From: Coraliomargarita sp.
Lineage (GTDB): Bacteria; Verrucomicrobiota; Verrucomicrobiia; Opitutales; Coraliomargaritaceae
Assembly: GCA_965216325.1 (NCBI GenBank)
Contig: OZ244160.1
Location: 2,720,001-2,784,000, forward strand
Direction: 5' to 3'
DNA: 64,000 nucleotides
Below the pieces are notes generated by a model that saw nothing but the letters and a program-made list of their open reading frames with translations, did not search any database and was not told where the DNA came from. Numbering within the stretch: the stretch's first letter is position 1; each line of letters opens with the position of its first letter. Of this stretch, positions 49,344 to 62,930 are shown piece by piece. The translations under genes and the position numbers were made by a program.

Positions 49344-49378
49344 ACCGCGCTCTGCGTTTACGTGGGGCGCGGTTTTTT
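49344..49378 (+). terminator. Terminator after the nitrate transporter
   Basis: ACCGCGC..GCGCGGT plus T-run. Confidence 0.6.
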
Positions 49379-49523
49379 GTGTGGAAATGAAAGTGGCTGG
49401 AGGCACCACCCCGTCTCGCATTGCGCCTTCGACGGGCTCAGGGCTGGCGAGCCACCCCTCCTCGTCAAGATGACATGGGAGGAGTTGCCAGCGGTGAGTA
49501 ATCACTAAGCTAGCACTCCAGCC

Positions 49524-50678
49524 ATGAAGAATACGAAATCACTCACTCCCACATCAGATAAACAGACTGAAGCGAAAGCGGATGTCCTCAAGCTTGGAAT
49601 CGACGTGCACAAGCGGCAATACGTTGTCGTGGCTCAGTTTGATAATCAGTCTCCGAAGACTCCACAGCGGTTTAGTCCTGAGGCATTTTTGGTTTGGATC
49701 AGCAAGCAGCGTGCCTACGCACAGCGTATTGTGACATGCTACGAAGCGGGCTGTTTCGGTTACGTGTTGCATCGGAGGTTGGAATCGATGGGCATCGAGA
49801 ACTTGGTCGTGCGTCCGCGTAACTGGGATGAGTATGGCTCGAAGGTGAAGACCGATGCCCGTGATGCGACCGAGCTTTGCAGCCATCTTGATCGTTATCT
49901 GGCGGGCAATGAGCGTGCTTTAAGTGTGGTTCGAGTTCCGAGCGAAGAACAGGAGCGTTCACGTAGTTTGAGCCGACAGCGCGACACCTTATCCAAAGAG
50001 CTCAAGCGCTTGCAGAACGTAGGAACCAGCAATGCCCGCTATTACGGTTATGAACTGAAAACAACTTGGTGGAAGCAGAACAACTTCAAGGAGTTGCTGC
50101 GTGAGTTGCCTGAGTATCTACTGGAGATCTTGCGCCCATTTCAGGCGATCTTAGCGAGCATCGATAAACAGTTCCGTGAAGTCACCGCACGCGAAGAGCG
50201 CAGAGCAAACCGCAAACTACCCGTTGGTCTGGGAGCACTCACAGCCTCGATTCTGGACAATGAGTTTCGTGACTACAGTCGCTTCAAAAACCGTGGCCAA
50301 GTCGCGAGCTATACGGGGCTGTGCCCGAGTGAATCTTCCAGTGGCGGCTCGCGCAAACAGGGTAGTATTAATAAACATGGCAATCCTCGTGTACGCCATA
50401 CTCTGATCGAGGCGATTTGGCGCTTTCTTCAGCACCAACCCGATTACGATCCGATCAAAGACTGGAGGAAGCGTATGTGCAATGAGCCCTTTAGTGCAGC
50501 TAAGAAAAAGAAAATGACTGTAGCTATCGCACGTCGATTTGCCGTGGACTGGTGGCGAATCAATACAGGGCAAATAGAGCCTGAAGCAGTCGGCTTGAAG
50601 GTGGACTATCCGAGCGCCTATGCAACGCGTGCTTTGCGTGAAGGCCGGATCGTCAAAATCCATGCGAAAGGAGCTTAA
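49524..50678 (+). CDS. IS110 family DEDD recombinase/transposase
   Basis: GIDVHK, YEAG, KTDARDA; C-terminal SYTGLCPSESSSGG..GN. Confidence 0.95.
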   Translation: MKNTKSLTPTSDKQTEAKADVLKLGIDVHKRQYVVVAQFDNQSPKTPQRFSPEAFLVWISKQRAYAQRIVTCYEAGCFGYVLHRRLESMGIENLVVRPRNWDEYGSKVKTDARDATELCSHLDRYLAGNERALSVVRVPSEEQERSRSLSRQRDTLSKELKRLQNVGTSNARYYGYELKTTWWKQNNFKELLRELPEYLLEILRPFQAILASIDKQFREVTAREERRANRKLPVGLGALTASILDNEFRDYSRFKNRGQVASYTGLCPSESSSGGSRKQGSINKHGNPRVRHTLIEAIWRFLQHQPDYDPIKDWRKRMCNEPFSAAKKKKMTVAIARRFAVDWWRINTGQIEPEAVGLKVDYPSAYATRALREGRIVKIHAKGA

Positions 50679-50700: not shown

Positions 50701-50860
50701 GAACGTTGGCTTGCGCGGCTCCCCTCCTGGTTCTTTGAAGAACCGATACCAAGATTGCGCGGCCTTTGTTCCTCTTGCCGATTGAATAGATCAACTTGCA
50801 CTGCTGAGAACAGGCACGTGCGGATAGCAGGTTATGCCCGGCAGTTTGCCGAATGCATCA
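50701..50860 (+). ncRNA. Putative bridge/seekRNA of IS copy 1
   Basis: Two internal-loop hairpins with target guides CTCCCCTCCT/ACCAAG and donor guides TCAACT/ATAGCAG; boundaries approximate. Confidence 0.8.
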
Positions 50861-51078
50861 ACAGAGGAAACGTTTCAAATGAATGATCTTAAAATGGGGG
50901 CTCATTGCCGCCCCCAAGCCCCCGCTAGGGGAACAGAATCGAAAGTAGATATATCCATGCATTAACAAAATTACGAAACCGCTTGACGATATCTCCCATA
51001 GCAGGAGGGGAGTTTTGGGCTCTGCGTTTACGTGGGGGTGTCCTTGCGCTGCATTGAGTTGTCTGGCTTTGCGGGCCT

Positions 51079-61314: not shown

Positions 61315-61430
61315 AAGTGGCCTTGTCCACAGGGGCGATGCGTCGCGAGTCGAGCGAGCATTGTCAGGCGATTATTTGTAGATGACATGGGCGTTTATCA
61401 GGAGCACGGAAGTGCTATGATGATAAACTT

Positions 61431-62519
61431 ATGCAAAACCCCACATCATCTACACGGACAACTAAGAACGCACTGGGCACAGTAATCAAGCTTGGCATTG
61501 ACGTGCATGCGAGCACCTACGTGGTGGTCATGAAGATCGATAGCAGCGCCCCTTCACGCGCGAAGCGCATGAAGCCTGATATCTTCCTTCGATGGATTAA
61601 GCAGCTGAGCACTCAGTGCGAGCAGTTGCAAAGTTGCTACGAGGCCGGTCCTTTTGGTTACAGCCTGCACCGCAAGCTCAAGGCGATGGGCGTGAACAAC
61701 CACGTAATCCGCCCGATCAACTGGGACACTCATGGTAAGAAGGTAAAGACCGACGCGCGTGATGCGTTGCAAATGGTCTTGAGTCTGGACGGCTATCTGC
61801 GGGGCAATGACCGCAGCTTCAGTGTCGTGCGTGTGCCCAGCGAGCAAGAAGAGCGTCACCGCAGCCTAACCCGGCAGCGTGAAAGCTTCGTCAAAGAACG
61901 TGGCCGTGCGGCCAAGCGTGGTAAGAGTCTGGGACTGTATTACGATCAACCCTTACCCAGCGGCTGGTGGAAGCCGCGCAAATGGATGCAGCTACTCGAA
62001 CAGCTCGACGATTTTTTGATCAGCCTGCTGGAGCCACTGCGGTTAAACTGCCTGCACTTTAGCGAGCTAATCAGCAACATCGAAGAACGTATCGAAGCGC
62101 TCGAGCCGGAACGGGTGCTGCCTAAAGGCATGGGGGTGGTCCTCTATGAACAGATCGAACGTGAGGTCTGCAACTGGAAGCGATTCAACAACCGCAAGGC
62201 GGTCAGTTCCTTTACCGGACTGTGCCCAAGCGAAGACACTAGTGCAAATCGGCGTTTCCAGGGCTCGATCAACAAACACGGCAGTCCCCGCCTGCGGCAT
62301 ATGCTACAAGAGTGCGCCTGGTTATTGATCCGGTGGAATCCCGGCTACAGTGGGGTGCGTAAATGGCAGGCCAAGCTCAGCGACGAGACCACCAGTAAGG
62401 CGACCCGCAAGAAAATTGCCGTGGCCATCGCCCGGCAGTTCGCCGTGGACTGGTGGCGCATACGCACTGGCCAATGCAGTCTCGAAGACTTCGGACTGAT
62501 AAGCAGACAAAACCCATAA
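61431..62519 (+). CDS. IS110 family DEDD recombinase/transposase
   Basis: GIDVHA, YEAG, KTDARDA, FTGLCPSE; divergent paralogue of 49524-50678. Confidence 0.95.
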   Translation: MQNPTSSTRTTKNALGTVIKLGIDVHASTYVVVMKIDSSAPSRAKRMKPDIFLRWIKQLSTQCEQLQSCYEAGPFGYSLHRKLKAMGVNNHVIRPINWDTHGKKVKTDARDALQMVLSLDGYLRGNDRSFSVVRVPSEQEERHRSLTRQRESFVKERGRAAKRGKSLGLYYDQPLPSGWWKPRKWMQLLEQLDDFLISLLEPLRLNCLHFSELISNIEERIEALEPERVLPKGMGVVLYEQIEREVCNWKRFNNRKAVSSFTGLCPSEDTSANRRFQGSINKHGSPRLRHMLQECAWLLIRWNPGYSGVRKWQAKLSDETTSKATRKKIAVAIARQFAVDWWRIRTGQCSLEDFGLISRQNP

Positions 62520-62583: not shown

Positions 62584-62760
62584 GCGGAGTGAGTCTGACC
62601 AAGCCCCTGTTGCCAACACAACGATTTTGTAGAATAGGCCACTTCGCCACCAAGCTTTTGAATGACCCAATGGATAGGTCATAGTGTGCTCTTCTGAGAA
62701 ACACTCAGAAACACGGATAGCAGGTTATCCCGGATCATCGAAACTCCGAGGCCATGCGCG
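62584..62760 (+). ncRNA. Putative bridge/seekRNA of IS copy 2
   Basis: Target guides AAGCCCCT/TTTGTAG, donor guides GTCAT/ATAGCAG, same layout as copy 1; boundaries approximate. Confidence 0.8.
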
Positions 62761-62857
62761 GTGGACGCTCAAAGACGATTGCAATCAAAACAAACCACTT
62801 ATCTTATGTAAAAACACTCACACGCTTCTACACTCTTGACAGAAACGAACATAGCAG

Positions 62858-62930
62858 GGGCTTCGCTTGCGGAGCCCGCTTCTGGAAGGAGGATTCTCTG
62901 TGTGACGGGCTTCGCAAGCAAAGCTCCTGC
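62858..62930. repeat. Family A REP doublet interrupted by IS copy 2
   Basis: GGGCTTCGCTTGCGGAGCCCG / CGGGCTTCGCAAGCAAAGCTCCTGC. Confidence 0.75.

Follow-up and report, generated by a model that had tools for sequence, protein, structure and literature searches.

A putative donor-binding module in the bridge RNAs of two IS1111-type elements of Coraliomargarita, and its co-variation with the element right end

The stretch of Coraliomargarita sp. DNA analysed here (the window; 64,000 nucleotides of contig OZ244160.1) carries two insertion elements, each consisting of a forward-strand transposase gene, a short leader and a long downstream non-coding region (326 nt in element 1, 338 nt in element 2) between defined ends:

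49468..49481, + strand: element 1 left junction, with the core AG (49468-49469), the extension ATGAC (49470-49474) and the subterminal repeat arm ATGGGAG (49475-49481); placed from the sequence and from empty-site copies of the target
49524..50678, + strand: element 1 transposase, 384 aa; Pfam PF01548 and PF02371; NCBIfam NF033542 at 168.6 bits against a cut-off of 140
50983..51004, + strand: element 1 right end, with the -35-like box TTGACG (50983-50988), the repeat arm CTCCCAT (50993-50999) and the terminal AGC plus core AG (51000-51004)
61380..61398, + strand: element 2 left junction, with the core AG, the extension ATGAC and the imperfect 12-nt subterminal repeat arm ATGGGCGTTTAT
61431..62519, + strand: element 2 transposase, 362 aa; Pfam PF01548 and PF02371; NF033542 at 137.8 bits, slightly below the cut-off of 140
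62836..62857, + strand: element 2 right end, with a TTGACA box (62836-62841), the subterminal repeat arm (62841-62852) and ATAGC plus core AG (62851-62857)

The two proteins, which are 46% identical across 353 residues, both exceed the Pfam cut-offs for DEDD_Tnp_IS110 (PF01548) and Transposase_20 (PF02371); NF033542 is the NCBIfam model named 'IS110 family RNA-guided transposase'. The C-terminal motif GL-P----S(t)G, an IS1111 feature that ends in SG, TG or occasionally TA (PMC11187229), reads GLCPSESSSG in element 1 and GLCPSEDTSA in element 2, where SA takes the place of the published variants. From the left end to the start codon there are about 49 nt in element 1 and about 44 nt in element 2, and both elements have terminal extensions of 7 nt on the left (AGATGAC) and 3 nt on the right (AGC). 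The published norm for the IS1111 group is a subterminal inverted repeat of usually 11-13 bp, with left and right extensions of about 7 nt and 3 nt (PMC11187229); the repeat of element 1 (ATGGGAG/CTCCCAT) is perfect and, at 7 bp, shorter than this norm, and that of element 2, which matches at 9 of 12 positions, is less perfect. Since subterminal repeats, 7/3-nt extensions and a long downstream non-coding region together make up the IS1111 pattern (PMC11187229), both elements are, on these sequence features, members of the IS110 family of the IS1111 type.

Empty target sites in the same genome fix the ends of both elements, and with them the core AG, the core plus left end (AGATGAC, at 49468-49474 and 61380-61386) and the right end plus core (ATAGCAG, at 50998-51004 and 62851-62857); a reading of the window from its letters alone (the sequence-only reading) had proposed the same two heptamers, and the empty sites bear it out. 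Element 2 occupies nine full-length places in the genome at 100% identity, the window copy included. Eight copies have an exact 1441-nt core in common and all lie in front of the same hairpin. With a stroke at each junction, their occupied sites read YGTAG / ATGACATGGG...GAACATAGCAG / GGGC followed by the 20-nt hairpin, or, written by left and right end, YGTAG / ATGAC...CATAGCAG / GGGC. Of 82 genome matches to this hairpin (at most three substitutions), 58 are preceded by GTAG, and are thus empty, and six by the right end ATAGCAG; the comparison of empty with occupied copies gives the empty site as YGT-AG-GGGC, with AG as the shared dinucleotide. Element 1 is present in single copy. Joining its flanks yields a 23-nt hairpin site of which the genome holds six exact unoccupied copies, with AG at the crossover. 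Over the eight element 2 copies and the 58 and six empty sites, insertion is orientation- and site-specific, with AG at both junctions.

The targets form two separate REP-like hairpin families, one per element. That of element 2 (YGTAG, then GGGCnnTGCTTGCGnnGCCC) is found at 62858-62877 of the window and at the 82 genome sites, 58 empty and 6 occupied. That of element 1 (CCCCTCC-TCGTCAA-GGAGGGG) lies within a longer composite repeat, and is represented by window positions 49455-49469 together with 51003-51012 and by 47 genome sites, its 6 exact empty copies being those counted above. An 18-nt direct repeat (ctctgcgtttacgtgggg, at 49350-49367 and 51020-51037) also brackets element 1, with one copy some 100 nt ahead of the left end and the other 15 nt past the right end, and is probably part of the repeat landscape around this element.

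When the ends are joined, the TTGAC box stands 17 nt upstream of a TGACAT that spans the junction. A junction promoter is formed in this way in IS1111/IS110 circles (PMC11187229), and by analogy the box may supply half of such a promoter here.

Downstream of each transposase gene, the non-coding region first holds a loop whose two strands correspond to the insertion site:

50719..50755, + strand: element 1 target-binding loop, with the right target guide (RTG) CTCCCCTCCT (50719-50728), a hairpin (50729-50744) and the left target guide (LTG) CCAAG+AT (50749-50755)
62601..62633, + strand: element 2 target-binding loop, with the RTG AAGCCCCU (62601-62608), a hairpin (62609-62622) and the LTG UUGUAG+A (62627-62633)

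The RTG of element 1 (CTCCCCTCCT; as RNA, CUCCCCUCCU) is complementary at every base to the core and right flank (AGGAGGGGAG), and its LTG CCAAG (50749-50753) repeats the left flank and core, ..TCAAG, the next two bases (AT) being the first two of the left end. Likewise, the RTG of element 2 is the complement of AGGGGCTT, and its LTG UUGUAG (62627-62632) equals the left flank TTGTAG, with the following A equal to the first left-end base. The matches thus comprise 10 nt, and 4 nt plus 2 more into the left end, in element 1, and 8 nt, and 6 nt plus 1 more, in element 2. In both RNAs the fold here is a clean internal loop that encloses a small hairpin, upstream of the donor region (z = -2.30 and -2.36). 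When alignments of homologues are read, the target guides differ in step with their own flanks; the guide ATGACCCCT, for instance, faces the flank AGGGGTCAT in one homologue (L025), and GCCCGCT faces AGCGGGC in another (L070). The top-strand match precedes the bottom-strand match, which is the order of IS1111 seekRNAs and the reverse of that in IS621.

Further downstream, the two non-coding regions have a 15-mer in common, CGGATAGCAGGTTAT, located at 50821-50835 and 62714-62728. It occurs exactly twice in the window, and not at all on the minus strand, and is the longest string common to both 3' regions, the runner-up having 9 nt; none of 2000 mononucleotide shuffles produced a shared 15-mer, the shuffle maximum being 13. 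The 3' regions are otherwise unalignable, and a pairwise MAFFT alignment that misplaced CGGATAGCAGGTTAT was discarded. The features around the 15-mer are as follows:

50769..50869, + strand: element 1 donor-binding arm, with the base stem UUCCUCU (50769-50775) / AGAGGAA (50863-50869); 96.4% of cells pair
50790..50797, + strand: element 1 candidate right-donor guide (RDG) AUCAACUU; moderate support
50798..50821, + strand: element 1 variable hairpin A (GCAC...GUGC); 97.9% of cells pair
50822..50831, + strand: element 1 left-donor guide (LDG) strand GGAUAGCAGG, with ATAGCAG at 50824-50830 and, at G50831, the first right-flank base
62672..62730, + strand: element 2 donor-binding loop, with GGAUAG (62672-62677), the candidate RDG GUCAU (62678-62682), a hairpin (62684-62714), the LDG strand GGAUAGCAGG (62715-62724; ATAGCAG at 62717-62723) and UUAUCC (62725-62730)

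The shared 15-mer and the short strings ahead of it (TCAACT at 50791-50796, GTCAT at 62678-62682) had been reported by the sequence-only reading and are found where it placed them. So is its likeness between this region and the loop upstream, as both have a top-strand guide, a hairpin and a bottom-strand guide in that order. Donor and target arms have this geometry, from which the sequence-only reading had suggested an origin of the two loops by duplication, in common, and no alignable sequence.

In order to follow the motif through natural variation, we assembled 79 related loci from genome assemblies and 80 from metagenomes, giving 161 sequences with the two window elements; the relatives come mostly from Opitutales assemblies. 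The motif stands behind a 4-nt helix strand in 126 of the 161. A recognisable right end was also present in 98 of these 126, which represent 85 distinct combinations of motif, end and flank, taken as insertion events; the 28 motif-bearing loci without a found end include contigs that stop short, and element 2, whose end was missed by the search pattern and matches on direct reading. The motif heptamer is identical to the right-end heptamer in 84 of the 85 events, in four allelic states (ATAGCAG in 50, ATATTAG in 28, ATAGGAG in four, ATATCAG in two), an agreement reached by none of 10,000 label permutations, which ignore relatedness. The sole mismatch (locus L048) combines the right end ATAGAAG, about 270 nt past the transposase gene, with the motif ATAGCAG; this copy could have lost its mobility, or the assembly could be wrong here. 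Because the four states are confined to a few clades, independent co-changes are few; a conservative count suggests at least three, each mirrored at the other site. The motif persists in homologues down to about 46% protein identity, across many assemblies, and CGGATA..AG is almost invariant among 40 distinct arms. Covariation of this loop with the element ends was the check that the sequence-only reading had proposed for its own claim, and the homologues support the view that the strand with ATAGCAG is a copy of right end plus core that follows the right end in its changes.

Three of the metagenome loci, which represent at least two different host elements, diverge immediately after the internal ATATTAG of the donor loop (L115:1895-2459, L151:1903-2000, L152:1358-1920). 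Some 45 nt beyond the junction, the other strand of the new DNA encodes the C-terminal part of a protein that appears by eye to be another IS110-type transposase. We considered and rejected the idea that the internal motif had served these three elements as right end when they moved, as the target guide mismatches the new flank and the other-strand IS110-type C-terminus follows; each is one element nested in the donor-loop DNA of another. A further locus (L128:1900-2004) breaks at the same point into a different sequence.

The structure of the arm was assessed by RNAalifold on 40 distinct 125-nt arms, which returned a base stem and a hairpin adjoining the motif. The base stem and hairpin A pair in 96.4% and 97.9% of cells, respectively, with changes on both sides in five of the seven pairs of each, as compared with 36-48% of cells when the partners are slid by one to three columns; the covariation score is 0.450 as against 0.212 in shuffles, none of 500 of which reach the observed value. 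The hairpin arms are present in both elements (GCAC/GTGC at 50798-50801/50818-50821 in element 1, GTGT/ACAC at 62684-62687/62711-62714 in element 2). The variable hairpin was part of the sequence-only reading, and the pairing and compensatory changes indicate that it is real and under selection as RNA.

The closing stems that the same reading had drawn around the loop, ATAG/TTAT in element 1 and GGATAG/TTATCC in element 2, find no support in covariation as drawn: the complementarity is present, but the ATAG/TTAT register pairs in 58.8% of cells, as against 76.5% for an alternative stem 4-5 nt further out (of the CUUGG/UUAAG type, with both-side changes in four of five pairs) and 66.1% for a pairing with a downstream partner that would produce a three-way junction or multi-loop. 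The three-way junction is the minimum-energy fold of element 1 and leaves exactly AUAGCAG single-stranded. The donor module may be a three-way junction instead of a simple internal loop. Taken as single sequences, both donor arms fold unremarkably (z = -1.62 and -1.79), with competing hairpins. Searched against Rfam 15 with E values up to 1 admitted, element 1 had no match, and element 2 a sole, chance-level match to a microRNA outside the element. Among the sequencing runs listed as containing the stretch, none was of RNA. A separate GC-rich hairpin (GGGGGCTCATTGCCGCCCCC, at 50896-50915), with no T run after it, separates the RNA from the right end in element 1; with at most three changes, it is conserved in five of 159 related loci (L022, L024, L025, L029 and L037) and is absent from element 2.

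Evidence for the 5' strand of the loop is more modest, as the sequence-only reading, which called this match short and less certain, had suspected. In element 1, the UCA of AUCAACUU lies opposite the left-end TGA, its CU opposite the core AG and its last U opposite the last left-flank base; an A-A mismatch falls at the first left-end base, so that there are 3+3 pairs in all. In element 2, GUCAUAGU forms five contiguous pairs (GUCAU/ATGAC) and none with the core. With the register fixed by the hairpin, and with four mis-called left ends (L032, L073/L090, L095) included, 21 distinct combinations pair at left-end bases 2 and 3 in 18 cases each, at base 4 in 16, at base 5 in 12 and at base 1 in nine; the core G is paired in seven, the core A in four, and the last left-flank base in 14. 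An unbiased scan of the whole arm has its maximum at the 5' strand, where eight of 33 sequences contain at least five contiguous bases complementary to the left end. In a clade with the left end TAAC in place of TGAC, the paired C has become U, which is compensatory, and the neighbouring U has become A, which is not. What stands family-wide of the proposed reverse complement of core plus left end is thus just UCA opposite TGA; pairing with the core is not general. The best candidate for a right-donor guide may be seen in this 5' strand (for element 1 AUCAACUU, for element 2 GUCAUAGU), weakly supported by these comparisons. In IS621, the RDG pairs discontinuously, with two flipped-out U (PMC11208160, PMC11208158), and element 1 would need to do likewise.

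The element 2 RNA also carries AUGACC at 62662-62667, which repeats the left-end extension of this element and stands 10 nt ahead of the candidate guide GGUCAU. The two pair in the minimum-energy fold, which would mask the candidate guide.

In our view, each of the two IS1111-type elements very probably encodes, in its 3' non-coding region, a bridge RNA (of the 'long seekRNA' form) whose donor-binding module is the stretch described. By analogy with IS621 and ISEc11, the RNA would be transcribed with or after the transposase gene and would bind the DEDD transposase, its first loop reading the insertion site (a REP-like hairpin, different for each element) and its second loop the element's own joined ends. 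The 3' strand GGAUAGCAGG reads like the top strand across right end plus core (ATAGC+AG) and would have the bottom strand as its partner; the partner of the 5' strand (AUCAACUU or GUCAUAGU) would, on its weaker evidence, be the top strand across core plus left end (AG+ATGAC). Recombination would then take place at the AG common to donor and target, and the joined ends would form a promoter.

The same identity between motif and right end, and their co-variation, would also be expected of a DNA site read by the same machinery, so that the internal ATAGCAG could be a pseudo right end, alternative or regulatory, recognised by the transposase complex and not an RNA guide. ISPpu9 makes several circles through alternative end boxes (PMC12288879), and four loci (L115, L151, L152, L128) break off exactly after the internal ATATTAG. 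However, the motif has no subterminal repeat and shows GG where the true end has CC, and it is single-stranded between helices that carry compensatory changes. In three of the four broken loci, moreover, the new sequence is the end of a nested second IS110-family element in opposite orientation, and the mismatch between the host element's target guide and the new flank points to insertion into this site and not to its use as an end. We therefore think this explanation unlikely.

It is likewise conceivable, and in our estimation very unlikely, that the motif is a protein-binding RNA scaffold whose resemblance to the right end is incidental, with guidance confined to the upstream loop and the ends read by the protein through the subterminal repeats. 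The near-invariance of CGGATA..AG in the 40 distinct arms would suit a scaffold, as would the sufficiency of the short ISEc11 seekRNA and the suggestion made in PMC11187229 that IS1111 elements may recognise their ends differently. An incidental likeness does not predict, however, that the two variable motif positions change only along with the same positions of the right end (84 of 85 events, four states). As to chance, or shared ancestry without function, the elements are related (46% protein identity), but the remaining non-coding sequence is unalignable, none of 2000 shuffles gives a shared 15-mer, and the motif is retained in homologues down to about 46% protein identity; the shuffle test and the co-variation of motif and end already contradict this reading, to which we give next to no weight.

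For ISEc11, transposition needed no more than an 82-nt seekRNA with target matches alone, and the authors state that they do not know what the long form does (PMC11187229). Since the short RNA sufficed there, the donor loop may be dispensable or auxiliary in the IS1111 group; by that analogy, the module described here may have an auxiliary part, or may be required when the reaction runs in one direction only. As a distant comparison, the non-coding region of ISSso6, an IS1111-type element of a Shigella plasmid, contains no 6-mer or longer string of its presumed end junction, the ends being inferred from a 13-bp inverted repeat only. An unannotated Klebsiella copy, intended as a further distant comparison, was dropped, as its ORF looked truncated.

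As compared with the IS621 bridge RNA (Durrant 2024, PMC11208160; Hiraizumi 2024, PMC11208158), the RNAs proposed here have the same plan, in which one RNA contains two pseudo-symmetric modules of stem, guide, stem-loop and guide. In each loop, one guide has top-strand sense through the core and the other is complementary to core plus right-hand side, and extra 'handshake' bases match the recombination product. In contrast to IS621, the RNA lies downstream of the gene for the transposase, the order of guides in each loop is reversed (the top-strand guide being 5'), the core is AG and not CT, and there are subterminal repeats of 7-12 nt at the ends; the putative donor module may also be a three-way junction and not a simple internal loop.

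The seekRNAs of ISEc11, ISPa11 and ISKpn4 (Siddiquee 2024, PMC11187229) agree with these RNAs in arrangement, with a downstream non-coding region, a top-strand match 5' of the bottom-strand match, and 7/3-nt extensions. Unlike the present case, PMC11187229 gives target matches only and leaves the 145-170-nt long form unexplained; the region described here is the positional equivalent of the extra part of the long seekRNA, and co-varies with the element end. For 93% of IS1111 elements, a bridge RNA has been predicted in the right end, with potential donor-binding nucleotides (PMC11208160). Among these, the predicted RNAs of ISCARN28, ISAzs32 and ISPa11 (Durrant 2024, Extended Data Fig. 10c) are similar, as judged from the figure legends, in having donor-complementary nucleotides and an RNA encoded in the right end that is often multi-loop; the elements described here differ in being unnamed and in coming from a different phylum, with relatives in Opitutales assemblies. 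ISPpu9 of Pseudomonas putida (PMC12288879) likewise has an AG dinucleotide at both junctions and inserts into REP-type repeats, but forms several circle types through alternative end boxes and no junction promoter.

In 80 of the 85 events (G/G in 68, C/C in 11, T/T in one), the donor-loop base that follows ATAGCAG is the one with which the right target flank begins, a count reached by none of 10,000 permutations; it does not equal the first left-end base, the one found next in the circle. Conversely, the left guide of the target loop has, directly after the core, the first left-end base in 28 of 32 combinations (A/A in 21, T/T in seven), and the first target base in just one of 24. With these extra-base matches in both loops, all four guides match the junctions after integration over one base more than they match the free partners. 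It is conceivable, and we put it forward tentatively from these sequence comparisons, that in this clade the two bottom-strand guides each extend beyond the core by one base, that base matching the other DNA partner and not their own. The handshake bases of IS621, which match the recombination product, have been described beside the top-strand guides (PMC11208160, PMC11208158); in the parts of the IS621 literature used here, and outside any targeted search, we met no description of a bottom-strand handshake.

Donor-loop bridge RNAs are established for IS621-type elements and predicted for the IS1111 type. Judged by titles and abstract openings, no listed paper appears to be about an IS1111 donor loop, and comparable predictions may already be contained in Extended Data Fig. 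10c and Supplementary Table 5 of Durrant 2024. Here, the second module co-varies naturally with the right end and tracks it base for base, which suggests that IS1111-type elements, too, read their own ends through RNA; this variation also provides a ready set of natural 'compensatory mutants'. If the one-base extensions of the bottom-strand guides are real, they would be the bottom-strand counterpart of the top-strand handshake guides of IS621, and the donor loop of IS1111-type elements would not be independent of the chosen target. Such extensions, following the partner DNA, would then be a design rule for reprogramming elements of this kind.
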